Positions 15,297-39,228 of a stretch of 64,000 nt of DNA are shown here, piece by piece. Below the pieces are notes generated by a model. It searched no databases. It was given only the letters and a program-made list of their open reading frames with translations, and was not told the origin of the DNA. Each line of letters begins with the position of its first letter. Within the stretch, counting starts at the first letter, position 1. The stretch lies in NCBI GenBank assembly GCA_905235375.1, contig CAJOLH010000003.1, forward strand, positions 85,268-149,267. The letters are read 5' to 3'. The stretch comes from an uncultured Bacteroidales bacterium (GTDB lineage Bacteria > Bacteroidota > Bacteroidia > Bacteroidales > UBA3663). The position numbers and the translations under genes are program-made.

Positions 15297-18200
15297 ATGT
15301 TCAACAACCAGCGCATTTGTACGCCTTTTGTTCGAATTCTTGCCATTCTGTTCACGATTATGTGGAGCGGGAGCATGTTGTTCGGGCAAACTCGAACTGT
15401 GACCGGTCAGGTAATCGACCAGGCCACCGGTGAACCCGTCATCGGTGCCAATGTCCTCGTCAAAGGCACAACGACAGGCACCATCACCGATCTCGATGGC
15501 AACTTCTCGATCTCCGGCGTGACCGACAAGTCGGTGCTCCACGTCAGTTTCGTGGGATACACAGCCGAAGACGTACCCGTCAAGGGAAATACCCAGCTGA
15601 ATATCGTCATACGCGAAGATAACGACCTGCTTGAAGAAGTGGTGGTGGTAGGTTACGGTGTGCAGAAGAAACGCGACCTCACCGGTGCCATATCGAGCGT
15701 CAAGTCTGACGAAATCAAGGTGGCACCTGTAATGAATGCCATGGAAGGCCTGCAAGGCAAGATTGCAGGTCTCGACATCACCCGCGAGTCGGGTCAGGCT
15801 GGTCAGTCGCCCACCCTCCTGCTGCGTGGTAACCGTTCGCTCGACGGCTCAAATGCACCACTCTTCGTCATCGACGGCGTGAGCGGTGGCTCCATCGCCA
15901 ACCTTAACCCCAACGACATCGAGAGCATCGAGGTCCTCAAGGATGCCTCCTCGACCGCCATCTACGGTTCGGCAGGTGCCAATGGTGTCATCATCGTCAC
16001 CACCAAGCAGGGCACCAAGGGCAAGGTCAGCGTCGATTTCAATGCCTATATGGGCCTCAACTGCCTACCCGCCTATCCCGAAACCTACACAGGCGAGGAT
16101 TGGATCAACTACATGGCTACCGGATACGAAGGCTACTTCGGCAAGTCGGTATGGAACGAATACCCCAACCGCACCGATGCACTGTCCCGCCTTTTCAACG
16201 AATTCGGCATCTCGCAGGCTGGCATCGACTGCTACAATCAGGGTAAGTTCATCAACTGGAAGGACGAAATCCTGAAGACCGGCGTGCAGCAAAACTACTC
16301 TCTCTCTGTACGCGGCGGCAACGACAAGACGCAATCCTATGCCAGCTTCGGCTGGCAGAACGAGGAGGGCATGTACCGCAACGACAATTTCAAGCAACTC
16401 ACTTTCCGTGCCGGAACCAATTTCGAGGCCAACCGCTACATCACGATTGGTTTTCAGTCGTCCATTTCCTACACCGACCGCAACCGCCGCAACTCCCGTC
16501 TGTCGAAGACGCTGAATGAGGTGCCCCTCGGTGAAGTATATGAGGCTGACGGAACACTCAAATGGTATCCCACCGGCTCAAGTGACGACTACGTCAACAT
16601 CATGGCCGATGATATTCCCGGACAGTATGAGAACACCGTCCGCGCCACACGCTTCAACGTCACACCATTCGTCGAAATACGTCCCCTCAAAGGCCTTTCC
16701 TTCAAGTCGCTCGTCAATACCAGTGTCTCCACTTCTCGTGCTGGCAACTTTGACGGTCTTTATACCTACTACAAACTCACCGGTTCGAGCCAGGATGTCG
16801 GTGTCCGAACCGCCAGCATCAGTCACAACGACGGATGGTCTATCCAGTGGCAGAACATCCTCAATTATAACTTCAAGATCGGAAAGATTCATGACATCAC
16901 GGCTACAGGCATCATTGAGTACAACCGTTCGCACAGCGAATACGACTACGCCTACAACCGTGGCTTCGACTACGACAGCTATACATTCTACAACCTCAAT
17001 GCTGGTCTGCAGCCCTCAGTGGATTCGAACTACACCTTGACCAAGATGCTCTCCTACGCTGCCCGCCTCAACTATAGCCTCTTTGGCCGCTATCTCTTCA
17101 GCGCCACCATGCGCTGGGACGGTGCCTCGCAGCTTTACGACCAGTGGGACTCTTTCCCCTCTGCATCCATCGGATGGCGCATCAGCGATGAACCGTGGAT
17201 GGAATCCACTGCCGACTGGCTCGACAATCTCAAGCTTCGTGCAGGTTACGGCGTGACGGGCAACTCCAACATTCCGGCCTATTCGTCGAAGACACTCGTC
17301 GAGTCGTCCGCCAACTCACTCAATCTGGGTGGCGGTCAGGTGCAGAGCTACATTCTCACACAATCCGTTGCCAACTACAATCTGGGCTGGGAGAAGTCCT
17401 ACAACTTTAACCTGGGTCTCGACTTCTCCATCTTCAAGGGCCGTCTCGATGCCAGCATCGATTATTATAACACCGACACCAAGGGTGTGCTCTACAAGCG
17501 CCAGCTCCCCACGGCTTATGGTCTCTACAATGCCAAAAATCCATACACGATGATGTCCAATGTCGCACGCATCAAGAACGATGGCATCGAAATCTCGCTC
17601 AACACGCGCAACATCGTTACTCGTGACTTCACATGGACTTCCACCATCACCTTTGCGAAGAACAACGAACGGCTCACCAACATCGATCTGGGTAACGGCA
17701 CCTCCGTCGATGAACTCATCTCACTGGGTCTCTTCCTCGACAATCCTGTCAACACATATTATAATTATAAGAAGAATGGCATTTGGCAAAGCGGACAGGA
17801 AGATCAGGCTGCCTGCTTCGGCCTGCTTCCCGGACAAGTCAACATCGCCACCGACTCAAGCCTCAAGTGGGATCCTTCCTACCAATATACCGGTTATGTG
17901 AGCGACCGAATCACCAACCAATACACGGCTGTCGAGCGTCACGGTGCCTACTACATCGAGAATGAAGACGGTACCCGCACCTATTATCGCCAAGGCACCC
18001 CGCAGACCGAGGCGGATGGCAGTGTCACCATCGTCGATGAGAACCTCTACACCATCGGTGCCAACGACAAGGCCATCCTCGGCCACAAGACTCCCGACTT
18101 CACCATCGGCTGGACCAACAACTTTAAATATAAATGGTTCGACCTCTCCATCATGACTGTAATGCGCTGGGGACAGATGGTCAACGGCGACCTGCTTGGC

Positions 18201-18545
18201 TATGTCAGCGAAGTCAACCAGCCTACCGACTTCGATTATTGGACACCTACCAACCCGACCAACGCCTTCCCGTTGGCTAAGCTCGGCGTGAGCAACGAAG
18301 CCAAGACTGCGCTCACCTTCGTCGATGGCTCGTTCGTCAAGATCAAGAACATCACCGTGGGTTACACCGTACCCGTCAAGCTGCTTCGCAAAGCCCACAT
18401 GAGCCAGCTCCGTATCTACGGCACCGTACAGAACCCATTCATCTTCTGCAAGGACGATATGCTCAAGGGTCTCGATCCCGAAAACACCTCGTCTTCATTC
18501 CCGCTCTACAAGACCTTCGTATTTGGTATTAATGCTTCCTTCTAA
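15297..18545 (+). CDS. susC: SusC/RagA-family TonB-dependent outer-membrane transporter
   Basis: 1082 aa. N-terminal carboxypeptidase-regulatory-like domain (VTGQVIDQATGEPVIGANVLVKGTTTGTITDLDGNFSI), plug region, and a C-terminal beta-barrel ending in F. Confidence 0.92.
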   Translation: MFNNQRICTPFVRILAILFTIMWSGSMLFGQTRTVTGQVIDQATGEPVIGANVLVKGTTTGTITDLDGNFSISGVTDKSVLHVSFVGYTAEDVPVKGNTQLNIVIREDNDLLEEVVVVGYGVQKKRDLTGAISSVKSDEIKVAPVMNAMEGLQGKIAGLDITRESGQAGQSPTLLLRGNRSLDGSNAPLFVIDGVSGGSIANLNPNDIESIEVLKDASSTAIYGSAGANGVIIVTTKQGTKGKVSVDFNAYMGLNCLPAYPETYTGEDWINYMATGYEGYFGKSVWNEYPNRTDALSRLFNEFGISQAGIDCYNQGKFINWKDEILKTGVQQNYSLSVRGGNDKTQSYASFGWQNEEGMYRNDNFKQLTFRAGTNFEANRYITIGFQSSISYTDRNRRNSRLSKTLNEVPLGEVYEADGTLKWYPTGSSDDYVNIMADDIPGQYENTVRATRFNVTPFVEIRPLKGLSFKSLVNTSVSTSRAGNFDGLYTYYKLTGSSQDVGVRTASISHNDGWSIQWQNILNYNFKIGKIHDITATGIIEYNRSHSEYDYAYNRGFDYDSYTFYNLNAGLQPSVDSNYTLTKMLSYAARLNYSLFGRYLFSATMRWDGASQLYDQWDSFPSASIGWRISDEPWMESTADWLDNLKLRAGYGVTGNSNIPAYSSKTLVESSANSLNLGGGQVQSYILTQSVANYNLGWEKSYNFNLGLDFSIFKGRLDASIDYYNTDTKGVLYKRQLPTAYGLYNAKNPYTMMSNVARIKNDGIEISLNTRNIVTRDFTWTSTITFAKNNERLTNIDLGNGTSVDELISLGLFLDNPVNTYYNYKKNGIWQSGQEDQAACFGLLPGQVNIATDSSLKWDPSYQYTGYVSDRITNQYTAVERHGAYYIENEDGTRTYYRQGTPQTEADGSVTIVDENLYTIGANDKAILGHKTPDFTIGWTNNFKYKWFDLSIMTVMRWGQMVNGDLLGYVSEVNQPTDFDYWTPTNPTNAFPLAKLGVSNEAKTALTFVDGSFVKIKNITVGYTVPVKLLRKAHMSQLRIYGTVQNPFIFCKDDMLKGLDPENTSSSFPLYKTFVFGINASF

Positions 18546-18559
18546 ATCGTCAGACGTTT

Positions 18560-20608
18560 ATGAAAAAGATATCATATTTAGCTATCGCTGCTCTGCTCTC
18601 CTCCCTGTCGGCCTGCGACATCGACGAGGAATACAAGACACAGCTCGACCAAGATGTTGTCTATACCACCGCTGCCGGTTTCGACGGCCTGATCAATGCC
18701 TGCTACGAGAACATGTACTATATGTACGGCAAGGAAGACGGAATCCCAATGATGGAAATGGGCGACCTTTGGCAAAACGGAAGTGCCACCAGCGGAAACT
18801 GGAAAGAATGTGTCAACAACCTCGACTGGAACACCGAGACTGGCGTGAACCGTGTCATCTGGAACGCACTCTATGCCACCATCGCTTACTGCAACACCGC
18901 CATCTACTATCAGAACGAATGTTTGGAGTATGACGCAACTGCCATGAAGGCAAAGGTAGCCGAAGCTTACTTCATGCGCGGATTCTCCTACTTCCATGTC
19001 GTCGAGCAATGGGGCGGCGTCACCCTCACCACCACTTCGATGGCCGAAGAGGGTGCTCGCGAATACGCCTACCGCTCCACCGAAGAAGAGATCTACGACC
19101 AACTCATCTCCGACCTCATGGTGGCCTATCAGTACCTGCCTGTCACCCAGGGACAGGAACACGGACGTGCCACCAAATATGCGGCTGCTGCCATGCTCTG
19201 CAAAGCGTGGATCCAGCGTTCACGCCTCGAACGCGACTTTGCCGAGAATCCCGACGGACGTTCCAAATGGGCCAGTGTCATCACCAACGAGGGCAGTGTC
19301 AAATACTCCACCTCTCAATGCGCCGACTCGGCTTTCAAGTATGCGCAGATTGTCATCAATAGTGGTCGCTTCCAGCTCTATCCTTCCGACGAGACGTCCT
19401 CAGGCAGCACCAAGGAGTGGCTCGGCGACAACAACAAGGACAACTCCGAATTTATCTTCCTCGAAGCCATCGACCACGAAAATGGCTATAACCCCGAAGG
19501 CTGGAACCGTGGACGCACTCGCCAATACTACTTGATGAACATCGGCACGATGGCATCCAACTTCGGCGTACAGAGTGACGGCATCCGTTATGGCCGTGCC
19601 AACACCACCCGCGTGCGCCCCACCCTCTACCTGCTCTACGATTGCTTCGACCCCAAGCCAAGCGAGACCGATGTGCCAAGCACCGTCTATTGCGATGACA
19701 AGAACCGCGAATGGACTGCAGACACACGCTTCGACGACAGCTTCTACTACAAATACTTCATCTCCTCTGGTTCGTTCCCCGTGCCTTACTCCATCCTCAG
19801 GGCTTGCGGCAAAGACACCACCTACTTCTGGGATGCCTACCAGACCTCTGGTTACGAGTCGCGCTATACCATCACGGGCAACATCGCATCACCCGATCAG
19901 CTTAAGGCGAATTACGCCGGCTACAACTATTTTGCCGACAATGGCTCGATGGCAAGCACCGAAGTTATCGAACTCGAGAACCGTCCCGCTGCCCTTGGAT
20001 GCTACACTCCCAACTTCGCTGTCGATTCCGCATGGTGCGCCCGCAAGAAGTACCTCGTAGCAGGTCTGCCCAGCCTCGATGGCTCCATCAACACCGGCAT
20101 CTTCGCCTACCTACAGAACAACGGTTCTGTGGCCGAAGACGCCAACTATCGCTCCCTTGCACCTTCGCTCAAGAAGCTGTCACCGCTCAAGTACCTCATG
20201 ACCAACCAGCAGTCGCTGAACGACTTCCCCATCATCCGTCTCACCGACATCTACCTCCTTGCTGCCGAGGCATCGATCCTTTCAGGCAACAACAAGGGCG
20301 AGGGACTGGAATATCTCAAGACGGTGCGTCGTCATGCCGCCAAGTCAACCAACGAGGCCAAGATCCTCGAAGGTGTAGAGCTCACCATCGACTACCTTGC
20401 CAAGGAACGCGCCCGCGAGCTTTGCGGTGAGAACTGGCGATGGTACGACCTGAAGCGCATGGGTCTCCTCACCGCCGAGTACCTCAATGCACCCCGTCGC
20501 AACATCTATGGTCAGCCCTATCAGACCAAGTGGCGCGTGCGTCCCATCCCCCAGCAGATGCTCGACCAAATCGCCAACCCCGAGGAATACGGCAACAACG
20601 GCTACTAA
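18560..20608 (+). CDS. susD: SusD/RagB-family lipoprotein (682 aa)
   Basis: Sits immediately downstream of susC. Lipobox LSSLSAC. Has the typical SusD N-terminal helices (AGFDGLINACYENMY, AEAYFMRGFSYFHVVEQWGGV) and the C-terminal RARELCGENWRWYDLKRMG block. Confidence 0.9.
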   Translation: MKKISYLAIAALLSSLSACDIDEEYKTQLDQDVVYTTAAGFDGLINACYENMYYMYGKEDGIPMMEMGDLWQNGSATSGNWKECVNNLDWNTETGVNRVIWNALYATIAYCNTAIYYQNECLEYDATAMKAKVAEAYFMRGFSYFHVVEQWGGVTLTTTSMAEEGAREYAYRSTEEEIYDQLISDLMVAYQYLPVTQGQEHGRATKYAAAAMLCKAWIQRSRLERDFAENPDGRSKWASVITNEGSVKYSTSQCADSAFKYAQIVINSGRFQLYPSDETSSGSTKEWLGDNNKDNSEFIFLEAIDHENGYNPEGWNRGRTRQYYLMNIGTMASNFGVQSDGIRYGRANTTRVRPTLYLLYDCFDPKPSETDVPSTVYCDDKNREWTADTRFDDSFYYKYFISSGSFPVPYSILRACGKDTTYFWDAYQTSGYESRYTITGNIASPDQLKANYAGYNYFADNGSMASTEVIELENRPAALGCYTPNFAVDSAWCARKKYLVAGLPSLDGSINTGIFAYLQNNGSVAEDANYRSLAPSLKKLSPLKYLMTNQQSLNDFPIIRLTDIYLLAAEASILSGNNKGEGLEYLKTVRRHAAKSTNEAKILEGVELTIDYLAKERARELCGENWRWYDLKRMGLLTAEYLNAPRRNIYGQPYQTKWRVRPIPQQMLDQIANPEEYGNNGY

Positions 20609-20613
20609 TCCGG

Positions 20614-20700
20614 ATGGGGCCCACTCGCCCCATCCATCCTCCCTCCGTCGCCACCGTTCCCCTCGTCCCCCTTGTCCCCGTCGCAGCCAAGTTTGGCTGC
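20614..20700 (+). repeat. Composite intergenic repeat: hairpin GGATGGGGC-N6-GCCCCATCC, a 9-nt-periodic GTYCCCC tract, and the palindrome GCAGCCAAGTTTGGCTGC
   Basis: Direct reading. The palindrome lies at 20683-20700. GT starts fall at 20647, 20656, 20665 and 20674. Confidence 0.85.
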
Positions 20701-20734
20701 CCCCCATAAAACAACAACCATTAATTAAAAACCT

Positions 20735-21955
20735 ATGAAGAAATTCTTTACTCTTGCAGTCTCATTGCTCGTTCTTTCCGCCACCGCTCAGAACACGGTC
20801 AAGAATCTCGACAAGTCACTCGTCTTCTACCTCACCAACGACACCGTCTCCACCCAGATGGGCATCTATGAGGATCCCGACACCGGCGAAGAGGTCGAAG
20901 GCCTTGTTCCACGCCCATGGAATGGAGCATCCTGTGTGTCCGCCTTCAATGCCTGCGGCATCGGACTTCAGTCCGGCACCGATGATTTCGGACTGAACAT
21001 CACCATCAACAACAAGTACACCGACCCCGAGAACGGCTTCACCATCCCTGCAGGCGTCTATCGTGGTGTCACCCTCAACAGGGCACGTCTTGACATGTCC
21101 GGCCCGCTCAACGATGGCTCCACATTCAGAGCGTTCACCAACGTCAAGTCGATGATCCTCTACTTCATCCCCGTACCCACCACGTGGGTGAACGGAGGCA
21201 TCTCAATCCAGGACTTCCCCACAGGACGTATCGAAGCCCAGTATCTCAACCAGACCGACACGCTTGGCGAACTCTCCAACCTCGCCTATCGTGAGGTACA
21301 CATCAGCATGACCGCCGATCCTCTCGAAGACGAGAACCGCTCCATCAGGGGTGTCGATCTCGTTGGCTTCCAGCGCGACCCCGACGATCCCACCAAGATC
21401 TCCGTCAACCAGCCATTCAAGTGGACGGTCAATCTGCAGAACAAGAAGGACGCTTCGGAGTACGAGGCTATTTGGGCTGACCCCGAAACCAAGCAGGGTG
21501 AGTTCGTCAATTACGTTTGCTCCCCCGACGAGACCGAAGCTGCCATCGACTATTACTTCGGGCGCCTCGACGAATGTCGTGGCTACTACGACAACGAAAA
21601 GATCCAATCCACTGCCACCGGTTACAGTTGCTACGACCACAAGTGGTGCACCAAGACCCCATGGACTGCCGAAACGCCCATCGCTCTCAAGGTGAAATAT
21701 CGTATGTACCTTGTCGGCGTGGCTGTGATGTCGGCTACCGATGGCGCAGGTGTTCAGTACATGAACTCTTCCGATGGTGCCAAGGCCAGCTGGTCTGATA
21801 GCGCAGTCGCTTACGGAACTCATGGTGAGGAGGGCATCGAGACCATCACCGCCGATGCTGTAGCCACCCCTGCCATCTACAACCTCAACGGCCAGCAACT
21901 CCGCACCGCCACTGGCCTCTGCATTTCCGGCGGCAAGCTCATCTACGTTAAGTAA
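20735..21955 (+). CDS. PUL-encoded secreted protein of unknown function with a T9SS-like C-terminal tail (406 aa)
   Basis: Sec signal without a lipobox Cys (LSATAQN). The C-terminus is AIYNLNGQQLRTATGLCISGGKLIYVK. Confidence 0.6.
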   Translation: MKKFFTLAVSLLVLSATAQNTVKNLDKSLVFYLTNDTVSTQMGIYEDPDTGEEVEGLVPRPWNGASCVSAFNACGIGLQSGTDDFGLNITINNKYTDPENGFTIPAGVYRGVTLNRARLDMSGPLNDGSTFRAFTNVKSMILYFIPVPTTWVNGGISIQDFPTGRIEAQYLNQTDTLGELSNLAYREVHISMTADPLEDENRSIRGVDLVGFQRDPDDPTKISVNQPFKWTVNLQNKKDASEYEAIWADPETKQGEFVNYVCSPDETEAAIDYYFGRLDECRGYYDNEKIQSTATGYSCYDHKWCTKTPWTAETPIALKVKYRMYLVGVAVMSATDGAGVQYMNSSDGAKASWSDSAVAYGTHGEEGIETITADAVATPAIYNLNGQQLRTATGLCISGGKLIYVK

Positions 21956-21974
21956 GCCCATCCCCATGTCACGT

Positions 21975-21994
21975 GGCAGCCAAGTTTGGCTGCC
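21975..21994 (+). repeat. Second copy of the GGCAGCCAAGTTTGGCTGCC palindrome
   Basis: Exact inverted repeat, 20 nt after the stop of the 406-aa gene, flanked by C-rich sequence. Confidence 0.9.
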
Positions 21995-22046
21995 CCTCCC
22001 CCAAACAACTATCCCAAACCAAATACTAACCCTAAAAACAAACTGC

Positions 22047-25046
22047 ATGAAAAAGTTTATCTTACTTGCTGCTGCTGTGCTCATGAGCACCACAGCGTTT
22101 GCAGACTCTTACACTATCGTGTTCAACGACAACCCTGAAGGAGTGGATGGAACCATAGTCATCAGACCAGATGTTACGGCCGACTCCATCGCTGCTGAAG
22201 GTGCAGAGTTCATCGCCGACGTAGCCATCGGCACTGCTTCCACCACCTCACGTGCCTACTTTGGCCAGACTGGCTATGGTCTCAAGTTTGGCAACAGTTC
22301 CAACCCTGGAAACCTGCTCATTCACCTTTCTGCCAAAGGTCAGGTGAACGCCACCTCCATCGTCGTAAAGGCGGCTCCCTGGTGGAATACCGACTCTGGC
22401 AAGATCGACACTCCGCATGCCACCATCAATGGCTTCGAATATGCTGTCGATGACACCGAGACCGCACTGAAGGACTACGAAATCGTATTCGACGAGCCAC
22501 AGTTCATCGACACACTCTTCTTCAGCGGCACCGAAAAGGGACGCAGCTATGTCAAGAGCGTGACCATCAATTACGAGGCTGCTTCGTTCGACGCTTCCGT
22601 TGCCCATGCTCCACGTTACACCGAGGGCAAGGCTTTCGAAGTAGTGCTTGGTCCCGACCTCGTTCAAGGCGGATTCCCAAAGACTGCCGAAGATGGCACC
22701 GTAAGCAAGAAGTTCGGCATCTCCGAGAAGTACGACTGGGTAGAGTACATCAACCCAACCTCTACGCTCGACAATGGCAAGGCTGAGGTGCAGACCTCCA
22801 ACCGCTATACCAACTTCGACCCCAACTATGAGGATTACAACTATGGTGAAGGCAACAACTGGATCCAGGTTTATGGCAACAACGGTTCTGTCGACTCTCC
22901 TGTCCTCTCTGCTGCTTGGGGCAAGTACATGGTATTCTATGTAAAGGAGACCGCCAAGATGTCATTCCTCGGCGTAGGTTCTGCCGGCGGCTCTGCCGAG
23001 GACGGCAACTGCCTCCACGTCATCGCCCTCTCTGAGGATGGCGACATCATCGAAATCACCTCTACCCCAGGTGCTATCTACGGTAAGGGCACGGCTTCCG
23101 ACACCGTCAGCATCGCTCTCGATCCCGAGAAGACCTATCAGATTACCCTCAAGGGTGACGAAATCGCCCAGAAGGACATCATGATCGCCGGCATCCAGAT
23201 CTTCGGCGCATCCGAAGTTCCCGGCACCGCTCCCAAGGCACCCGAAGTTCCCAACTTCGCTTACTGGGAGACCGTCAAGGGTCCCGACATGCTGACCACC
23301 AAGACCAAGACTGCCGACGACGGCTCCGTATCCGAAAAGCCTGCCATTGCGCTCGATTGGATCGAATATGTCAACCCAACATCGACGCTTGACGACGGCA
23401 CAGCCGAAGTTCAGACCTCCAACCGCTATACTGACCTCGATCCCGAGACCGGCGAACACGGCGACTTCATTCAGGTTACCGGCGACAATGGATCGGTTGA
23501 CTCTCCTGTCCTTTCCGCTGCATGGGGCAAGTACCTCAAGTTCTTCGTACAGAACACCAAGAAGTTCACCGTTTATGCTGTCGGTTCATCAACCGGCTCT
23601 GCTGAAGACGGCAACTACGTTCTTGTTACTGCCAAGCCATTCAACAGCACCAACAATGTAGTGGCTCAGACCGAACCTGGAACCATCTACGGCAAGGGCA
23701 CAACTTCCGACTGCGTTTCTGTTGTGCTCGATCCTACCGAGAAGTACGAAATCGTTGTCGAAGGTGCTCCTGAGGTCAACAAGGACATCATGATTTCCGC
23801 AGTTACCCTCCAGGACGAGGCCACTGCCGACGCTCAGGAGGCAGGCAAGGGTACGCTCAACATTGCCATCGAGCAGGCTGCTTTCGATGCCGAGGCCAAC
23901 ACCTACAAGGTTGAACTCGTCGAAGGCAAGACCTACACCCTCGCAGGCGAGGCTCCTCTTGGCACCAAGAACGTTGACATCGTTGGTAACAAAGCACTCG
24001 TTGTCACCGCTGCCAACGGACAGATCACTGCCCAGACCGCGCTCAAGATCGAAGACGTCAACTTCGACTGCGCCGCTTCCACCGTGGCTCCTATCGCTTT
24101 CTCTGCTAATCCCGATACATCGCTCTACACCTACACTGAGACCACCGAAACGGCTGAGGATGGCACCGAAACCGTCGTAGGCACCTACAAGTATGAAGGC
24201 GCTAACCAGAAGGTTTACGAGGCTCAGGCCCTCAACATCGTAAAGACCAACTTCGCTAACCTCGGCGTTTCCCTGATCGATGCCAACAAGCAGCCTTGGG
24301 CTGTCCGCAGCCTCGTTATCGATAGTGTTATCGTCCAGAACAACAACGCCGAGGGCAAGGCTCTCATTCGCTTCGACGATGGCGGTAACAGCATCAAGAA
24401 CATCGACATCAAGAACTCGACGTTCTACAACACCAACGAGACCACAGGCTACTACTTCCTCCGCTTCTCGAACGCTTCCAACGCTACTGGAAACAAGGTT
24501 TGGGGCACCGAAGACGCTGCCATGACCTGGAACATGAAGAACAACACCTTCGTCAACAGCCCATCCAACCAGAACTTTGCCAACAACTACGTGAACAACA
24601 AGTGCGTCACCGCTGAGTGGACCGAGAACATCTTCGTCAACACCTATCGCCTCCAGAAGGCCATCGGCGGCAGCTGCGTTTACGTCACCGACAGCACCAA
24701 CTGCATCTGGGGCGGCATCAACGAGGTGGACAACACCGACGCTACCAAGTTCGCCGTGCTCGACTCGATGGATATCCAGTACGCTGAGCTTCCCGCGCTC
24801 GATCTCACCAACCCCGAGGCCCTCAAGGAGTACTTCGCTCCATTCGAGAGCAGCTACGCAGCTAAGGTTCAGGCCGGCGATCCTCGCTGGGCTGTAGAGT
24901 ATGTCGATCCAGTTCCTCCCGTTGCCATCGAGCAGATTGATGCCGAGACGATCGTCACCAACCGCGCTTACAACCTCAACGGCCAGCGCATCGAGAAGGC
25001 CCAAGGCCTCATCGTCCGCGACGGCAAGGTTCAGTACATCAAGTAA
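22047..25046 (+). CDS. PUL-encoded large secreted protein (999 aa): N-terminal domain, two tandem copies of an uncharacterised domain of about 175 aa, a beta-helix-like region, and a T9SS-like tail
   Basis: The start is set at MKKFILLAAAVLMSTTAFA. The internal duplication is visible as VEYINPTSTLDNGKAEVQTSNRYT...SVDSPVLSAAWGKY versus IEYVNPTSTLDDGTAEVQTSNRYT...SVDSPVLSAAWGKY. Parallel beta-helix-like repeats are present (IKNSTFYNT, MKNNTFVNS). The C-terminus is AYNLNGQRIEKAQGLIVRDGKVQYIK. Confidence 0.65.
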   Translation: MKKFILLAAAVLMSTTAFADSYTIVFNDNPEGVDGTIVIRPDVTADSIAAEGAEFIADVAIGTASTTSRAYFGQTGYGLKFGNSSNPGNLLIHLSAKGQVNATSIVVKAAPWWNTDSGKIDTPHATINGFEYAVDDTETALKDYEIVFDEPQFIDTLFFSGTEKGRSYVKSVTINYEAASFDASVAHAPRYTEGKAFEVVLGPDLVQGGFPKTAEDGTVSKKFGISEKYDWVEYINPTSTLDNGKAEVQTSNRYTNFDPNYEDYNYGEGNNWIQVYGNNGSVDSPVLSAAWGKYMVFYVKETAKMSFLGVGSAGGSAEDGNCLHVIALSEDGDIIEITSTPGAIYGKGTASDTVSIALDPEKTYQITLKGDEIAQKDIMIAGIQIFGASEVPGTAPKAPEVPNFAYWETVKGPDMLTTKTKTADDGSVSEKPAIALDWIEYVNPTSTLDDGTAEVQTSNRYTDLDPETGEHGDFIQVTGDNGSVDSPVLSAAWGKYLKFFVQNTKKFTVYAVGSSTGSAEDGNYVLVTAKPFNSTNNVVAQTEPGTIYGKGTTSDCVSVVLDPTEKYEIVVEGAPEVNKDIMISAVTLQDEATADAQEAGKGTLNIAIEQAAFDAEANTYKVELVEGKTYTLAGEAPLGTKNVDIVGNKALVVTAANGQITAQTALKIEDVNFDCAASTVAPIAFSANPDTSLYTYTETTETAEDGTETVVGTYKYEGANQKVYEAQALNIVKTNFANLGVSLIDANKQPWAVRSLVIDSVIVQNNNAEGKALIRFDDGGNSIKNIDIKNSTFYNTNETTGYYFLRFSNASNATGNKVWGTEDAAMTWNMKNNTFVNSPSNQNFANNYVNNKCVTAEWTENIFVNTYRLQKAIGGSCVYVTDSTNCIWGGINEVDNTDATKFAVLDSMDIQYAELPALDLTNPEALKEYFAPFESSYAAKVQAGDPRWAVEYVDPVPPVAIEQIDAETIVTNRAYNLNGQRIEKAQGLIVRDGKVQYIK

Positions 25047-25066
25047 CCCCTCCCCTCTTTAATAGC

Positions 25067-25098
25067 AACGAGCCGGCTCACTCCGGCTCGTTTTTTTT
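25067..25098 (+). terminator. Rho-independent terminator after the 999-aa gene
   Basis: CGAGCCGG-CTCACT-CCGGCTCG stem-loop followed by T8 (25091-25098). Confidence 0.85.
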
Positions 25099-25118
25099 CA
25101 TGTCCCCGTGTCCCCTCC

Positions 25119-25176
25119 GCAGCCGTCCTTGGCTGTCCACTCCCCACCTGTCCCAGTCGCAGCCAAGTTTGGCTGC
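25119..25176 (+). repeat. Degenerate (GCAGCCGTCCTTGGCTG) plus exact (GCAGCCAAGTTTGGCTGC, 25159-25176) copies of the palindromic repeat, with GTCCCC flanks
   Basis: Direct reading. Confidence 0.85.
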
Positions 25177-25218
25177 AAAAAAATCCCCGAAAAATTTGCA
25201 TCTTTCCCCAAAATCCCC

Positions 25219-25226
25219 TATCTTTG
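25219..25226 (+). promoter_or_regulatory. Bacteroidota -7 box (TATCTTTG) for the PL1/CE8 gene
   Basis: Lies within the block AAAATCCCCTATCTTTGC (25210-25227), 45 nt upstream of the ATG at 25271. Confidence 0.55.
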
Positions 25227-25270
25227 CACCAGCTAATAAGCATTGTCAACTAACCACAACCCGCACCCCT

Positions 25271-28200
25271 ATGAAATCCACCCTTTTCTCCACCCTGCTC
25301 TCGGCCGTTGTCCTCCTGTGCACACTCTCAACGCCAGCCCTTGCCGAACGCCAGCTCGCCTTCCCCGGCGCCGAAGGCTACGGTCGCTACGTCACCGGCG
25401 GTCGTGGCGGCGAAGTCTGCTACGTCACCCGCAACGACGATTGCTCGGACAACAACCTCGTCGAAGGCACCCTCCGTTGGGCACTCAACCACGACAACGG
25501 CGGTCGTCCCCGCATCATTCTCTTCAACACCTCGGGCACCATCTACCTTGAGTCAAAGCTCAGGTTCCGCTTCCCCAACGTTTCCATCCTCGGCCAGTCG
25601 GCCCCCGGCGGAGGCATCTGCCTCACCGGCTACAACATGTATATCAACAACGACAACATCATCATCCGTTATGTGCGTTTCCGTGCCGGCGACATCCCCA
25701 ACAAGTCGATGACCGGCCTTGACATGGAGAACTGCGAAGGTGTCATCCTCGACCATTGCTCCATGACGTGGAGCATGGAGGAGTGCCTCACCGCCTACGA
25801 CAGCGACTCCACCACCGTCCAATGGTGCATCATCGGCGAAGGCCTCTACAACTCCAAGAACTCCAAGGGAGCACGTGCCTACGCCACCCAATGGGGAGGT
25901 GAGCACAGCACCATGCACCATACGCTCATCACCAACAGCCACTCGCGCGCCCCGCGCTTCAATGGCGTACGCTCCGTGTCGAACACCAAGGGCGAACACG
26001 ATTACCAGGTCGATTCTGAGTTTGCCAACAACGTCGTCTTCAACTGGAGCGGTGCTACCAACCAGTATGGTGGCGAATACGACAAGGCCACCGTTGAAGC
26101 CCCCGCATGGGCTAAGGATGACCCGGGCTACGATCGCGTATATCTCATCGGCAACTACTACCGCCCGGGTCCCGCCACGCAGCGCAACACCTCCAGCGCC
26201 CGCTACTGGTGTGCCCCCTCCACACCCTACGGCCAATGGTATCTTAGCGGAAACAAGTTCGAAGTGAACAGCCGTTGGGCACCCCAGAACAGCACCGTCT
26301 GGAGCGAAACCGAACTTAACAAGGTCAATGCCGACAACTACTACGGAGCCCAGTCGGGCAGCTCCAGCCGTGGCATCAACCTCACAGGCTCCAACTTCAC
26401 TACCTACACCCTCACCGAACTTCCATACGCCCTCAGCGGTCTCGAATATGAAAGTGCCGACGAAGCCTTTGCGAAAGTCACCAGCCGCGCCGGTGCATCC
26501 CTGCCGCGCTACGATGAGGTCGATCAGCGACTCCTCGACGAAGCCGCAGGCCGCATCGATCCGCAGTATGCCGGTGCTTCCATCCCCAACGAGAAAGGCA
26601 TCATCGATGCACCCGACGACGTCCAGCTCACCGAGCACGACACCTACGTCGTCGATGGTGTCACCTACACCAACTTCCCCTTCCTCGGGATGCGCGAGGG
26701 CGACCGCTACATCATCGATGCTGATTGCGACGGAATGCCCAACGCCTACGAGGACGAGATGGGCTTCAACAAGAACGACCCCACCGATGGCGCAGCCCTT
26801 GCTGCCAATGGCTACACCAACGTTGAGAACTACCTCAACGGCATTGCCGATGGCACTCTCCAGAAGTCGCGCTACGAGACCTCCGACTACGCCATCACAC
26901 CCGGCCATGACATGACCGGCGACGTCCACTACACATTCACCACAGGTCGCGCCGACGGCGAAGCGCCCCAAGGCGGCACCCTGCCCTTCGCCTCGCAGTA
27001 CGTCATTCCACAGAACACCTCCCTCTACCTCGATGGATACACGCTCATCGGCTGGACCAGCCAGGGAAAGACCTATTACATCGGCGATGTCGTCACTCTC
27101 GTCGAGGACATGACCTTCGCGCCCGTCTTCCAGAAGAACACCATCTCGATCGACGACCGTCGCCACGACACCCGCTGGACGTGGGACTTCACCCTACCTG
27201 CCGCCCCTAAGCTAAATGCAGAGGACGAAGGCATCTACGTCAATCAGAACGAGGTCGAAGGCATCTCCATCGACACCTATATCGAATATTCAGGCACCCG
27301 CGTCACCCTGCCCTTTCGCACAGGAGCCACAGCCTTTGTCAACGACACCAAGGTCGAATCCGATGTAAGCCCCGACTCCACCCTAGCCTTTATCACAGTG
27401 CCTACCGATGTCGCCCTACGCACCATCACGGTCCTCTTTCCCTACGTTGAGCCCTCCCATGCCCAATCGGGCAGCGTCACCATCAGCTGGCCCTGGAACA
27501 CGGGAGCCTACGTAGCTGCTGCCACCTTCAGCGACGATGACTCCGCCCTTGCCTTCGCCTCAGCCACCGCCACCTACAACGAGAATTATCTCAGCTATAT
27601 GTCCAAGACCGACAAGGTCGATAAGGAGAACTGGGTAGCCTTCCAACCTGCCGAACAGATCTCGACACCCGACCCCAACTACGTGGTTGAGTTCCGCGTC
27701 ATCCCCGCCGCAGGCGTCAGCTTCACCCCCACGTCCGTCAGCCTCAATGCCATGCGTTTTGGCACCGACGGTGGCAAGCTCGACATCTACGCCGTCTATG
27801 GCGACGAGGAAGTGCTCCTCGACGAAGCCCTCGTCCCAGGTCGCGACAATGCCGGCAAGACCCCCATCTACCACGACCTCTCAAACCCTTCAAACCTCTC
27901 AAACCCTTCAAACCTCTCAAACCTTTCAACCCTTTCAAACCCATTCTCCCTCCGCATCTACATCTACAGCCTCGGCAACTCCAAGCAGGTAGGATTCAAC
28001 CACATCACCATCAACGGGGACTGGAGCGGCAGCTCCTCAGCCGAGCAGTATAGCGTCAGTGCCGAAGCCCTGCCCGCCGAAGGAGGCTCAGTGACCCTCT
28101 CTCCCGCAGGCGGTCTTTATCGCGAAGGCACGGTCATCACCCTCAAAGCCACGCCCAACGAAGGCTACAACTTCGTAGGCTGGACCGACGAGGATGAGAA

Positions 28201-29563
28201 CCTTGTCAGCAAAGATCCCTCCTTCGAACACACCGTCACCTCTGACGCCTACTTCTTCGCCAACTTCAAGGCTTACAGCGCCTACGACGAGATCTTCGAG
28301 CACTGCCGTCCCTTCGATGCCGCAGTCCGTACCATCGACGAGCTTCTTGTCGCCCTCGATGCAGCAGCCAAGCGGCCCTCCCCCGACCAGCGCTATCGCA
28401 TCTTCCTTTTCGATGGCACCTACGACTTCGGCACCACTGCCCTCACCAAAGTGCCCGGCAACACCTCGCTCATCGGCGAAAGCATGGAGGGCGTGCTTCT
28501 CATGAACGATCCTGGCACCGTCACAAAGTACCAGGACGAGACGCCCGTGCTCTTCATCGACCAGAATCAGAACGGCGTCTATATGCAGGATCTCACCATC
28601 CGCCAGGCACGCGACTGGGACAGCGGCCGCTCCAAGGGCCAGGCCATCGCCCTGCGCCAGCGCGGCAAGCAGGCAATCTACAAGAACGTGCGTCTGCAGG
28701 GCGTGCAGGACACCTACTATCTCAACAAGGCCGATGCCACCGCCTACTTCGAGGATTGCGACATCGCCGGCGAAGTCGATTTCATCTATGGCGACGGCAC
28801 GATGTTCTTCCAACGCTGTACCCTCCGCCCCCTCAGTTCTGGAGCCTGCATCACCGCCCCCAACACCCAGCCCGCCTACAAGGGCATCGTCTTCGACCGC
28901 TGCACCATCGATGGTGCCGAAGGCTATCGTCTGGGGCGTCCGTGGGGCGACTCACCTGCCAGCACCTTCCTCCACACCACCATGCGCTCCCTGCCCAATG
29001 CCGCAGGTTGGGGCTCAATGACGTCAGGCCTCGTCGTTCGCTTCCATGAGTTCGACTCGTGCGATGCCGAAGGCAATCCGCTCGACCTCAGTGCTCGCTC
29101 CATCAGCGCCTGCAATGCCGCCGCTACCTCCGACCCCTGCGTCATCACCGAAGAGCAGGCTGCCGACTACACGCTCGACAAGGTGTTCCCCAACTGGTAC
29201 CCGCAGAGCTTCACCGTACAACTCAGCACCGAAATGGTAATCGCCGACCGCACGCTCACCTGGGAATGTCCCGACACGGCCTTAGGCTTCGTCGTATGCA
29301 AGGACGGTCATCCCGTAGCCTTCACCACTGACCTCTCCTACACCCTGCCCGACGATGACACCGCCAGCACTTATTCCCTGCGCGTCATCAACGAGATGGG
29401 CGGTCTTGGCCCAGCGTACAATGCCGTCACAGGCATTCGTCAGCTATTCACCGACCGCATCCCCACCGACACCCCCACCACCTTTCACAACCTCCTCGGC
29501 CAAAAAGTATCCTCCAATTACCGAGGGATTGTGATCAGCAGCAAGGGAATCATGATGAAATGA
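25271..29563 (+). CDS. Multidomain pectin-degrading enzyme (1430 aa): N-terminal PL1 pectate lyase, Ca-binding-like and Listeria-Bacteroides-type repeat domains, C-terminal CE8 pectin methylesterase, and a T9SS-like tail
   Basis: PL1 evidence: AFPGAEGYGRYVTGGRGG, DHCSMTWSMEE, HSRAPRFNGVR. CE8 evidence: GQAIALRQRG, LQGVQDTYYL, VDFIYGDG, YRLGRPWG. The GYNFVGWTDED and YTLIGWTSQG repeats are present. The C-terminus is FHNLLGQKVSSNYRGIVISSKGIMMK. The start is set at MKSTLFSTLLSAVVLLC. Confidence 0.88.
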   Translation: MKSTLFSTLLSAVVLLCTLSTPALAERQLAFPGAEGYGRYVTGGRGGEVCYVTRNDDCSDNNLVEGTLRWALNHDNGGRPRIILFNTSGTIYLESKLRFRFPNVSILGQSAPGGGICLTGYNMYINNDNIIIRYVRFRAGDIPNKSMTGLDMENCEGVILDHCSMTWSMEECLTAYDSDSTTVQWCIIGEGLYNSKNSKGARAYATQWGGEHSTMHHTLITNSHSRAPRFNGVRSVSNTKGEHDYQVDSEFANNVVFNWSGATNQYGGEYDKATVEAPAWAKDDPGYDRVYLIGNYYRPGPATQRNTSSARYWCAPSTPYGQWYLSGNKFEVNSRWAPQNSTVWSETELNKVNADNYYGAQSGSSSRGINLTGSNFTTYTLTELPYALSGLEYESADEAFAKVTSRAGASLPRYDEVDQRLLDEAAGRIDPQYAGASIPNEKGIIDAPDDVQLTEHDTYVVDGVTYTNFPFLGMREGDRYIIDADCDGMPNAYEDEMGFNKNDPTDGAALAANGYTNVENYLNGIADGTLQKSRYETSDYAITPGHDMTGDVHYTFTTGRADGEAPQGGTLPFASQYVIPQNTSLYLDGYTLIGWTSQGKTYYIGDVVTLVEDMTFAPVFQKNTISIDDRRHDTRWTWDFTLPAAPKLNAEDEGIYVNQNEVEGISIDTYIEYSGTRVTLPFRTGATAFVNDTKVESDVSPDSTLAFITVPTDVALRTITVLFPYVEPSHAQSGSVTISWPWNTGAYVAAATFSDDDSALAFASATATYNENYLSYMSKTDKVDKENWVAFQPAEQISTPDPNYVVEFRVIPAAGVSFTPTSVSLNAMRFGTDGGKLDIYAVYGDEEVLLDEALVPGRDNAGKTPIYHDLSNPSNLSNPSNLSNLSTLSNPFSLRIYIYSLGNSKQVGFNHITINGDWSGSSSAEQYSVSAEALPAEGGSVTLSPAGGLYREGTVITLKATPNEGYNFVGWTDEDENLVSKDPSFEHTVTSDAYFFANFKAYSAYDEIFEHCRPFDAAVRTIDELLVALDAAAKRPSPDQRYRIFLFDGTYDFGTTALTKVPGNTSLIGESMEGVLLMNDPGTVTKYQDETPVLFIDQNQNGVYMQDLTIRQARDWDSGRSKGQAIALRQRGKQAIYKNVRLQGVQDTYYLNKADATAYFEDCDIAGEVDFIYGDGTMFFQRCTLRPLSSGACITAPNTQPAYKGIVFDRCTIDGAEGYRLGRPWGDSPASTFLHTTMRSLPNAAGWGSMTSGLVVRFHEFDSCDAEGNPLDLSARSISACNAAATSDPCVITEEQAADYTLDKVFPNWYPQSFTVQLSTEMVIADRTLTWECPDTALGFVVCKDGHPVAFTTDLSYTLPDDDTASTYSLRVINEMGGLGPAYNAVTGIRQLFTDRIPTDTPTTFHNLLGQKVSSNYRGIVISSKGIMMK
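27879..27941 (+). repeat. Seven tandem 9-bp units (TCTCAAACC/CTTCAAACC) in-frame in the PL1/CE8 gene
   Basis: Direct reading. Encodes LSNPSNLSNPSNLSNLSTLSNP. It shares the identical 21-mer ACCTCTCAAACCCTTCAAACC with 7861-7881. Confidence 0.95.
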
Positions 29564-29887: not shown

Positions 29888-30330
29888 AGCACTCTGACGC
29901 GCAACAGAGTGCTTCCTCATTTTGCGCAAGCATCGCGACGGGCGACAGAGTGCTTGCTCCTATAGAATAGTGTACTCTGACGCGTGTCAGAGTGCTTGCT
30001 TCTACAGAATAGAGCATCGCGACGGGCGACAGAGTGCTTGCTCCTATAGAATAGTGTACTCTGATGCATGACAGAATGCTTGCTCCTACAGAATAGAGCA
30101 TCAGGACGCGCGGCAAAGTGCTTCCGCGATTAGATAGAGCATTCTGACGCGCGACAGAATGCTTACTCCTAAGGAATAGAATACTCTGACGCGCGACAGA
30201 GTGCTTGCTCCTACGGAATGAAGCATCACGACGCGCGACAGAGTGCTTCCGCGATTGGATAGAGCATTATGACGCGCGACAAAATGCTTGCTCCTACGGA
30301 ATAAAGCATTATGACGCGCGACAGAGTGCT
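29888..30330. repeat. Tandem array of 11 degenerate 41-42-bp units, each carrying inverted arms (G[C/T]ACTCTG-ACGCGCGA-CAGAGTGC)
   Basis: CAGAGTGC-type arms start at 29905, 29946, 29988, 30030, 30072, 30114, 30155, 30197, 30239, 30280 and 30322. The sequence between the arms is also conserved. Confidence 0.9.
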
Positions 30331-30513: not shown

Positions 30514-31696
30514 TTAACCGCGAGCCATGCGATAGATTTCTGCCATGTCGGTGGGCGTTAGCACCTTCAGGCAACCGCAGGTGGCAGTGTAGTCGCGACT
30601 GCATTTGCGTGTCATTTCGCAAATCTCGTCATCGGTAATCTCTCGGCCAATGAGTTCGCGAATGTTGATGGGCATTCCGATGGCATGATAGAAACGCTCC
30701 ATGGCTTCGATGCCCTTCAGTGCAGTAGACTCAGGGTCGGTGAAGTCGTTGGGCACATCCATCACATTCACCGCGAAGCGCACGAAACGACTAAGGTTCT
30801 GGTGCAATACATATCGTGCCCAACTGGGCCAGATGGCGGCAAGACCGGCACCATGTGTCACGTCGAACATTCCGCTCAGCTCGTGTTCCAGCTGGTGGGT
30901 AGCCCAATCGTCGCTCACGCCGCAACCCGTCAGTCCGTTGTGTGCAACACTGCCGCCCCACATGATCTGAGCACGCTGACGATAGTCCTCGGGATTCTTG
31001 AGCACATCGAAGATGGCGACCTTCATGCGACGCAGCACAGCTTCCGCCAAATCGGTGGTGAGGTCCATATCGTCGTCGATGGTGAAATAGCGCTCCATGG
31101 TATGCATCATCATATCGGTGACACCTGCTGCCGTCTGATAGGGCGGTAAGGTGAACGTGCGACATGGATTCATGATGGCGAACTTGGGACGTGACATATT
31201 GTTAGAATAGCCAAGTTTCACATCGCCATCCTCATTGGTGATGACACTTGCCTCGCTCATCTCGCTGCCTGCTGCAGGGATAGTCAGCACTGATGCCACT
31301 GGAAGCATGGATTCGGGTTCGGCCTTGCCCAGATAAATGTCCCATACATCGCCATCGAACCTAACGCCGTAAGCGATACATTTTGCACTGTCGATGACAC
31401 TACCGCCACCCACAGCAAGGATGAAGTCAATGCCTTCCTCGGCAAAGTTCAATGCCCTGCTTTGCCAACGACAGACGCGGATTGGGAACTACGCCACCCA
31501 GGGTAAATACTTCGATGCCACCATCGCGAAGGAGGTTGCACACCTTGTCGAGCAATCCCGAGCGAACCGCACTCTTGCCACCGTAATGAACCAGCACCTT
31601 GGTGCCACCATATTTCTTCACCAGTTGAGCCACCTGCTCCTCTGATTCTTTGCCGAAAACCACTTCGGTCGGCGCATAGTAATTGAAATCCTTCAT
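30514..31696 (-). pseudogene. Iron-containing (group III) alcohol dehydrogenase interrupted by a frameshift near 31440
   Basis: The N-terminal ORF (MKDFNYYAPTEVVFG...GVVPNPRLSLAKQGIELCRGRH*) and the C-terminal ORF (..EEGIDFILAVGGGSVIDSAK...) overlap in different frames. A 1-nt indel at TGCCGAGGAAGGC restores ELCR-EEGIDF. Confidence 0.8.
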
Positions 31697-31720
31697 TTTG
31701 TCAATTGATAAAAAATTGTT

Positions 31721-36447: not shown

Positions 36448-36584
36448 GGGGAGGAGGATGAGGGGGTTAAGGGCAGCCAAACATGGCTGCCATGGGGACA
36501 AGGGGGGGGATGGAGTTGCGATGGCATCGCAACAGACGAAACGGGGAACGGGAGGAACGGGGAACGGGAGGGACGAAAGTGGGC
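36448..36584. repeat. Composite intergenic repeat: palindrome GGCAGCCAAACATGGCTGCC (36472-36491), palindrome GTTGCGATGGCATCGCAAC (36515-36533), and GGAACGGG direct repeats
   Basis: Direct reading. It fills the whole space between the CotH-like stop and the GT start. Confidence 0.85.
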
Positions 36585-39156: not shown

Positions 39157-39170
39157 AGAGGTTATTTTTT

Positions 39171-39226
39171 CGGTATTACGGCATTACGGAATAACGTTAT
39201 TCCGGCATTTCGTTATAGCGAGACAA
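39171..39226. repeat. 8-bp-periodic CG-punctuated tract forming an imperfect palindrome of about 50 bp (core CGGAATAACGTTATTCCG) between convergent genes
   Basis: The units read cggtatta cggcatta cggaataa cgttattc cggcattt cgttatag. It could act as a bidirectional terminator. Confidence 0.6.
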
Positions 39227-39228
39227 TT

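Follow-up and report, generated by a model that had tools for sequence, protein, structure and literature searches.

A lineage-specific family of REP-type intergenic stem-loops in uncultured rumen Bacteroidales, with units in a pectin utilization locus

Introduction

Repetitive extragenic palindromic (REP)-type repeats have been described almost entirely from Proteobacteria and are barely characterised in Bacteroidota. The subject of this study is a family of short palindromes detected in a 64-kb stretch of DNA from an uncultured Bacteroidales bacterium (contig CAJOLH010000003.1, positions 85,268 to 149,267; the whole stretch is referred to as the window), where several copies lie between the genes of a pectin polysaccharide utilization locus (PUL). 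To our knowledge, no REP-type repeat is known in PULs. The functional paradigms for such elements are the malE-malF REP and REP325 of the Escherichia coli REP/BIME (bacterial interspersed mosaic element) system, while the Neisseria intergenic mosaic elements (NIME) consist of arrays of the dRS3 repeat separated by RS spacers, dRS3 being a target of phage or transposase integration.

Among known repeats, those most similar to the palindromes form the CGTC-tagged REP superfamily, which includes Neisseria dRS3 and Rickettsia RPE-4/6 and has been reported in Bacteroidetes (Di Nocera, De Gregorio & Rocco 2013, PMC3733652). Its members carry an unpaired CGTC or TGTC tag (a CCTC variant is allowed), an 8-9 bp stem with A-T as its first two pairs, a 4-5 nt loop and an unpaired 3-nt CCA tail, and have no known transposase; head-to-head dimers predominate, head-to-tail arrangements are negligible and clusters are rare, the CGTC-1 units of Neisseria being clustered (PMC3733652). 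REPs lie mostly between co-directional and convergent genes, and the CGTC-tagged elements occupy both types of gap, with occasional copies inside genes (PMC3733652). In E. coli, REP325 has been found both to stabilise the upstream mRNA and to act as a partly Rho-dependent attenuator (bioRxiv 10.64898/2026.03.23.713779, a 2026 preprint).

The palindromes described here share several traits with the CGTC-tagged REPs. Both form short stem-loops rich in GC, with CGTC or TGTC left unpaired as a tag on one side, a loop of 4 nt and a brief C-rich tail (CCA there, CC or CA here); both occur in many copies between co-directional and convergent genes, with occasional in-frame intragenic copies; and for neither is an associated transposase known (here, none was seen within ~8 kb of the copies). 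They differ in their stem, which is 7-8 bp long and starts with G-C and C-G rather than being 8-9 bp long and starting with two A-T pairs, in their solely head-to-tail arrangement, in a tag that is often doubled (GTY-N3-5-GTC) and has AGTC as a common variant, in their strongly C-rich spacers and in their hosts, which are uncultured rumen Bacteroidales. They are best classed as a variant of the CGTC-tagged REPs, new in its stem sequence and strictly tandem arrangement. The initial annotation of the window had drawn an analogy with E. coli REP/BIME elements, and this remains apt for the kind of element, since both are extragenic palindromes at gene 3' ends and within operons that form hairpins without a U-tract; the dual role of the E. 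coli REPs as mRNA stabilisers and partly Rho-dependent attenuators is also the mechanism proposed below. However, the E. coli elements have a GTAG tag instead of YGTC, imperfect stems of ~35 nt, inverted pairs (BIME/REPIN) instead of head-to-tail units, and a cognate Y1 transposase, or RAYT (REP-associated tyrosine transposase), none of which was seen here (for the transposase, within ~8 kb of the copies). NIME are likewise intergenic arrays of a short CGTC-type repeat alternating with related spacers, but dRS3 and its spacers differ in sequence, and integration of phages or transposases into the repeat was not seen.

Results

Distribution and arrangement of the family

The palindromes of the window are real members of a lineage-specific, REP-type family of intergenic stem-loops in uncultured rumen and hindgut Bacteroidales, a conclusion that is well supported. 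The exact 18-mer GCAGCCAAGTTTGGCTGC is present three times in the window, at 20683-20700, 21976-21993 and 25159-25176, and is accompanied by a variant, GCAGCCAAACATGGCTGC, at 36473-36490 and a degenerate copy, GCAGCCGTCCTTGGCTGT, at 25119-25136. When up to three mismatches were allowed, 8 matches were obtained on the two strands against 0.08 expected, a number that was reached in 0 of 100 shuffles. Scanning for the exact 18-mer in one genome per species (at least 109 stretches) placed it at no fewer than about 79 loci in at least about 28 Bacteroidales metagenome-assembled genomes (MAGs), almost all of rumen or hindgut origin (RUG, RGIG and Tb.RUG series, horse, deer). Among the matches listed, each MAG had 6-9 loci. 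In unrelated phyla, ~30 single 18-mer matches were found among the matches listed, compared with ~17 expected by chance.

A covariance model, R1, was built from an alignment (A1) of 98 non-redundant units and gave 173 matches at E <= 0.01 in 79 Bacteroidales loci (611 kb). Of the 115 strongest units, ~104 (~90%) were intergenic, although only ~12% of the DNA of these related loci is. The REP-like family suggested by the initial annotation was borne out by the many copies in related genomes, by their overwhelmingly intergenic location at gene 3' ends and by a copy number that varies between orthologous loci. The gene strands of the relatives were assigned with a codon log-odds caller trained on long open reading frames (ORFs), which reproduced the gene map of the window and was spot-checked against Pfam; simple longest-ORF calling misplaced units within ORFs, as no stop codons interrupt the C-rich tracts.

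All neighbouring pairs within 120 nt of each other (33/33) were arranged head-to-tail, at distances of 40-117 nt, and 25 of 82 arrays held 2-4 units. Fifty-one arrays were found between co-directional genes (40 in sense and 11 in antisense orientation), 15 between convergent and 2 between divergent genes; for the 40:11 bias towards the sense orientation, the binomial p is ~1e-4. Furthermore, unit orientation flips with the gene strand inside 11 kb of the window, and likewise within two related loci (L029 and L030), which argues against a simple dependence on the replication strand.

No Rfam family matched any part of the window at the gathering threshold, and a search of positions 20550-25300 at E <= 5 returned only a chance miRNA match. 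Six-frame translations of ~700 kb of Bacteroidales loci, covering ~8 kb around each copy, contained no HUH...Y (HUH/Y1) motif; the sole match to this regular expression came from an unrelated Pseudomonadales locus (L012), itself a chance match to the 18-mer.

The identical 18-mer was also observed with purine-rich flanks (AGACCGCTNCGCTCAAAGACAAAAGACC - hairpin - TCAAAGACAAAAGA) in seven loci (L046, L047, L049, L053, L055, L062 and L089) belonging to UBA1216, RUG13802, a Paludibacteraceae MAG and RUG12873, where it occupies the gap from a stop codon to the following ATG. Thus the core of the hairpin is common to several lineages, with flanks that are lineage-specific.

Unit structure and covariation

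Each unit spans ~40 nt and comprises a pyrimidine-rich 5' flank ending in the unpaired YGTC tag, a stem, a 4-nt loop (AGTT, TCCT, TCTT and others) and a CC-rich tail. The stem is GC-rich, 7-8 bp long and of the form GCNGCCR/YGGCNGC, with GCAGCCA/TGGCTGC giving 7 bp, or 8 bp together with a flanking G-C pair. Flanking sequence was sufficient for 112 strong units, and in 72 of these (64%) GTC was located 0-1 nt 5' of the stem. The tag read CGTC in 34, TGTC in 23 (57 for the two) and AGTC in 14, while GTAG was not found; it was doubled as GTY-N3-5-GTC in 68. Tails started with CC in 51 of the 112 and with CA in 21.

Stem cells were paired in 99.2% of cases. The first two pairs were G-C and C-G in 139/139 distinct sequences, pair 3 was A-U in 110, G-C in 25 and C-G in 3, and pair 7 was A-U in 113 and G-U in 25. 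With units oriented by the C-G skew of their flanks alone, pair 7 was A..T in 89, G..T in 27 and A..C in 0. As G..T occurs only on the C-rich strand, a structure adopted by this single strand, either RNA or single-stranded DNA (ssDNA), is more likely than a duplex binding site. The 27 G..T cases are not independent, since subfamilies proliferate.

Units in the window

The copies in the window amount to five units in four intergenic regions (IGRs). Of the ~25 IGRs of at least 30 nt, four are C-rich (C 39-49%, G 12-15% on the sense strand), and these are exactly the palindrome-bearing ones; the remaining IGRs are all AT-rich. Model R1 found exactly the same number of units, all of them intergenic and co-oriented with the flanking genes, with scores of 35-51 bits in sense; on the opposite strand they scored 18-22 bits or gave no match. 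The genes concerned, whose map agrees with the initial annotation, encode SusC (15297-18545), SusD (18560-20608), a 406-aa protein without a Pfam match (20735-21955), a 999-aa DUF4957 protein (22047-25046) and a 1430-aa protein with a pectinesterase domain (25271-29563). The features in and around the four IGRs are as follows.

20612-20635, plus strand: susD-proximal hairpin GGATGGGGC-CCACTC-GCCCCATCC, 9 bp, no U-tract, 4 nt past the susD stop codon.
20636-20666, plus strand: C-rich, G-poor spacer with GTY every 6-9 nt, running into the tag of unit 1 (C 44% and G 15% in this IGR); predicted to be unstructured as sense RNA.
20667-20706, plus strand: unit 1, with tag GTCCCCGTC, hairpin at 20683-20700 and tail CCCCCC; 51.2 bits in sense versus 18.7 in antisense; located 34 nt upstream of the ATG of the 406-aa gene.
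21960-21999, plus strand: unit 2, with hairpin GGCAGCCAAGTTTGGCTGCC at 21975-21994; 38.3 bits; between the genes for the 406-aa and 999-aa DUF4957 proteins.
25067-25100, plus strand: canonical intrinsic terminator, a 10-bp stem followed by T8, which ends the susC-to-DUF4957 transcription unit.
25103-25142, plus strand: unit 3, decaying, with hairpin GCAGCCGTCCTTGGCTGT at 25119-25136; 35.3 bits.
25143-25182, plus strand: unit 4, with tag TGTCCCAGTC and hairpin at 25159-25176; 41.1 bits; an A-rich tract and then a promoter on its 3' side.
25195-25226, plus strand: predicted Bacteroidetes-type promoter, TTTG-N20-TATCTTTG (called from sequence; repeat family D9), serving the 1430-aa pectinesterase gene; not part of the repeat.
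36467-36506, minus strand: unit 5, with tag TGTCCCCATG and hairpin GGCAGCCATGTTTGGCTGCC at 36472-36491; 46.3 bits on the minus strand versus 17.9 on the plus strand.
36515-36533, minus strand: hairpin of a second family (repeat family D19), GTTGCGATGCCATCGCAAC, preceded by CGTCT in C-rich sequence; the intergenic copy spans 36505-36546.
36534-36584, minus strand: C-rich tract with periodic GTTCCCC / GTTCCTCCC (period 16, 2.2 copies), downstream of the CotH gene.

GTC lies directly at the stem in units 1 and 4. The initial annotation had placed the exact copies at 20683-20700 and 25159-25176 correctly, and the others were real but called for small adjustments. For the copy given as 21975-21994, this span is that of the longer GGCAGCC...GGCTGCC form and the exact 18-mer is one nucleotide shorter at each end; the degenerate copy extends to 25136 rather than 25135; the variant at 36472-36491 is the full hairpin, of which the 18-nt core occupies 36473-36490; the additional hairpin after susD had been noted 2 nt away, at 20614-20637; and the terminator, taken to end at 25098, reaches 25100. 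The surroundings are C-rich as described, but the ~9-nt period ascribed to them is only approximate, given that GTY spacing ranges from 5 to 9 nt. The lack of U-tracts was also confirmed: family hairpins are followed on their 3' side by CCCC or AAAAAAA, and the sole terminator-like site nearby is that at 25067-25100. With no U-tract after any of them, the palindromes were rejected as intrinsic terminators.

Three broader points need correction. A repeat had been said to follow each gene of the PUL, but the 14-nt gap after susC has none, and the pectinesterase gene is followed instead by a different hairpin array, of 42-nt units. The copy at 25159 had been assigned to the polycistronic transcript, but lies outside it, having the terminator on one side and the Bacteroidetes-type promoter on the other. 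Finally, the family is not specific to PULs, as the copy at 36.5 kb is flanked by two minus-strand genes that encode CotH and a GT4 glycosyltransferase, and lies 24 nt upstream of the glycosyltransferase start.

Folding of the sense RNA of the four IGRs predicted isolated hairpins amid otherwise unpaired C-rich RNA, with -31.8 kcal/mol (z -5.45) for IGR1, -15.4 kcal/mol (z -2.5) for IGR2, z -7.3 for IGR3 including the terminator and z -5.4 for IGR4.

Conservation at the pectin PUL

Relatives of the PUL were compared for presence or absence of the units, as the initial annotation had suggested, and part of this comparison was informative. Three loci (L110-L112) encode an identical 406-aa protein and have IGRs identical to those of the window, so they say nothing on presence or absence. 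Units were found at each of the three IGR sites in L019 (82% nucleotide identity), L113-L116 (84-87% protein identity) and L118 (83% protein identity). None were found at E <= 0.1 with filters off in L119 (79% protein identity) or in L120-L122 (42-54% protein identity); the IGRs of these four loci are AT-rich and in some cases contain ordinary terminators and promoters.

In the orthologs with units, all units are sense-oriented, with 1-3 per site, and the upstream ones are decaying; the position of unit 3 is occupied by 1-3 decayed units. The terminator at 25067-25100 is kept in all orthologs, as is a distance of ~18-23 nt between the hairpin of unit 4 and the -33 element. The family stem shows a compensatory change from GCAGCC/GGCTGC to GCGGCC/GGCCGC in L115. 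The susD-proximal hairpin, which is outside the GCAGCC family, is also kept in the orthologs, with a compensatory change of its own to AGATGGGGC/GCCCCATCT in L115. Over four orthologs, the segment of IGR2 that has changed least is the 22-nt hairpin block, with one loop change, while its flanks contain indels. The orthologs differ in IGR length (126, 201, 182 and 122 nt) and in unit number by amounts that are not divisible by 3. The units were therefore rejected as conserved small ORFs, a possibility that had been named as one that would refute the proposed family.

At the same two intercistronic sites, L119 has unrelated strong hairpins without a U-tract (z -6.1 and -4.1). The family is thus a lineage-specific acquisition, and a stem-loop at these sites is older. 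Turnover was also seen in an array elsewhere, where L029 has 5 units against 3 in its orthologs L030 and L083, a two-unit block having been duplicated.

Other repeats and oddities in the window

The convergent IGR after the pectinesterase gene holds, at 29888-30330, a tandem array of 42 nt x 10.6 (or 83 nt x 5.3) with the hairpin unit AGCACTCTGACGCGCGACAGAGTGCT + TGCTCCTACAGAATAG. Homologous arrays in L070 (1021-1467) and L077 (6957-7302) indicate a second repeat family common to these MAGs.

A second-family CGTC-tagged hairpin with C-rich flanks, CCGTCTGTCGCGATGCCATCGCAAC, is present at 35800-35841 on the minus strand, in frame in the GT4 gene (ORF 35290-36447). The residues it encodes, ...TPSSPRSVCRDAIATPSSSSP..., separate the N-terminal GT4 domain from the remaining protein. 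Its sister copy at 36505-36546 is intergenic, and the hairpin in the gene looks like an intragenic REP-type insertion.

In-frame 9-nt repeats at 7799-7921 (CCCCTCAAA x 13.7) and 27876-27942 (ACCTTTCAA x 7.3) encode (PSN/LSN)n; a histidine phosphatase contains one of these stretches, in its C-terminal part, and the 1430-aa pectinesterase protein contains the other. In L009, L032 and L051, this 9-mer is also found in IGRs, after hairpin units. Periodic 8-nt repeats (CGGAATAA / CGGTATTA) are found at 889-959, just upstream of a gene starting at 970, and at 39171-39232, at the 72-nt convergent IGR 39157-39228. A 24-nt x 9.6 tandem repeat at 46416-46646 lies inside the minus-strand ORF 45084-46757 and is in frame, its period being a multiple of 3. 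An iron-containing alcohol dehydrogenase gene at 30514-31720 is seemingly split: ORF 30514-31308 corresponds mostly to the C-terminal domain, while the 412 nt upstream of it, nominally 'intergenic', resemble coding sequence, so that a frameshift or pseudogene is probable.

Discussion

Taken as a whole, the best explanation is a REP-type family that grows by local tandem duplication and has an RNA-level role in the PUL, to which a probability of roughly 0.6 is given. Units occupy gaps at gene 3' ends, where head-to-tail duplication would give rise to short arrays that decay and are replaced; this is seen in part in the loci compared, and would explain why copy number differs between close species although position is kept. 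In the PUL, the units would be transcribed in sense and form stable, isolated hairpins without a U-tract in unstructured C-rich RNA. By analogy with E. coli REPs, such hairpins may act as barriers to 3'-to-5' exonucleases, protecting the upstream cistron, and as weak, possibly Rho-assisted attenuators that lower downstream expression, with the net result that expression would be graded susC-susD > 406-aa gene > DUF4957 gene. The units may in this way tune the expression of neighbouring genes, and a role in mRNA stability, processing or attenuation is plausible.

An RNA-level role is favoured by the 40:11 sense bias, by the restriction of G·U pairs to the C-rich strand, by the hairpin being the best-conserved block of its IGR and by the unrelated hairpins at the corresponding sites of L119. 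Several observations weigh against it. Eleven arrays are antisense to both flanking genes, in one case (L001) with both flanking genes Pfam-confirmed on the opposite strand and in another (L028) with the strand of the upstream gene confirmed in the same way, so sense transcription is not obligatory, which counts against such a role as a general rule. Unit 4 lies after a strong terminator and before a promoter, outside any operon transcript. C-richness is not peculiar to the unit-bearing IGRs, which match a genome-wide sense-strand bias, coding strands here being strongly C>G as well (GC skew of ~-0.15 to -0.24 was observed for the plus-strand genes at 15-30 kb). A few proliferating subfamilies could account for the G·T asymmetry, as could folding of ssDNA instead of RNA, and conservation of the hairpin could reflect gene conversion or replacement by family members rather than selection at the locus. 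The relatives, moreover, were analysed over ~8 kb around each copy.

The presence of unrelated hairpins at the same two sites in a relative with 79% protein identity (L119) suggests a more general idea, judged less likely than not, namely that head-to-tail arrays of YGTC-tagged hairpins are a Bacteroidales-specific form of operon punctuation. Hairpins lacking U-tracts would be recruited from a mobile pool to intercistronic sites of PULs and other operons and selected there in sense, which would set the ratio of SusC/D to downstream enzymes through 3'-end protection and partial attenuation. If so, what is conserved at these positions would be the presence of a hairpin, which in this lineage is at present supplied by the repeat family.

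Of the competing explanations, the one that survives best, while still judged rather unlikely, is that of a selfish or neutral ssDNA element without a role in the PUL, whose C-rich strand folds and is cut at the YGTC tag by an HUH/Y1 (RAYT-like) or other transposase, and which persists in IGRs solely because insertions are tolerated there. Its tag-hairpin-tail architecture is that of REPs, whose tag is cleaved on ssDNA by the E. coli RAYT (PMC3733652), and Bacteroidetes-specific RAYT subclasses exist (PMC6006769). Also in its favour are the strand-specific tolerance of G·T, units in both orientations relative to genes (antisense arrays included), lineage-specific presence with quick unit turnover, and the related hairpin in frame inside the GT4 gene. 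However, the ~700 kb of Bacteroidales DNA around the units contained no HUH/Y1 motif, CGTC-tagged REPs are without a known transposase (PMC3733652), and a strictly tandem arrangement of units fits local duplication better than transposition. Orientation also tracks the local gene strand instead of one replication strand, in the window as in L029 and L030, and the sense bias and the position of the hairpin as the best-conserved block of IGR2 count against this reading too.

The units might alternatively be Rho-dependent attenuators in their own right, the C-rich, G-poor tracts serving as rut sites and the hairpin as a pause or end protection, with partial termination between PUL cistrons and at gene ends. 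The composition of the IGRs (39-49% C, 12-15% G, predicted to be unstructured outside the hairpins), the location of units at gene 3' ends and in convergent IGRs, the lack of U-tracts and the partial Rho dependence of REP325 attenuation in E. coli (bioRxiv 10.64898/2026.03.23.713779) are all consistent with this. Nevertheless it is considered improbable, as equally strong C>G tracts are common in coding regions here, which makes C-rich composition non-discriminating for rut sites, the 11 antisense arrays would give G-rich RNA, and unit 4 comes after an intrinsic terminator.

A double-stranded DNA operator for a dimeric PUL regulator, for example one centred ~66 nt upstream of the predicted pectinesterase transcription start, would account for the perfect 18-bp palindrome and for the conserved ~18-23 nt between hairpin and promoter, but is highly improbable and was ruled out by distribution, covariation and the G..T asymmetry: the same sequence recurs in dozens of unrelated gene contexts and in tandem arrays, divergent IGRs (the promoter-holding type) are avoided, and the stem covaries rather than keeping its sequence, with 27 G..T against 0 A..C, which is unexpected for a duplex site. 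A full Bacteroidetes promoter lies within 120 nt downstream of only 4/115 units, two in the PUL of the window and two in its ortholog L019, and promoter linkage as a general property was rejected on the same count. CRISPR arrays were dismissed because of the 1-4 units per array, the related C-rich spacers of variable length and the dispersal of copies over many IGRs, and integron attC sites on architecture and distribution.

Under the favoured explanation, a tandemly growing REP-type family with an RNA-level role, the units bear on how PULs are regulated. PUL operons need very unequal product amounts, with SusC/D far above the enzymes, and transcribed hairpins exactly between PUL cistrons are a concrete candidate for grading those products after initiation. 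The units also have practical consequences for the analysis of these genomes, as they inflate ORF calls through C-rich tracts free of stop codons, can insert in frame into proteins and mark a clade of uncultured rumen Bacteroidales. If the RNA role is true, they would in addition be a source of regulatory differences between closely related rumen strains.

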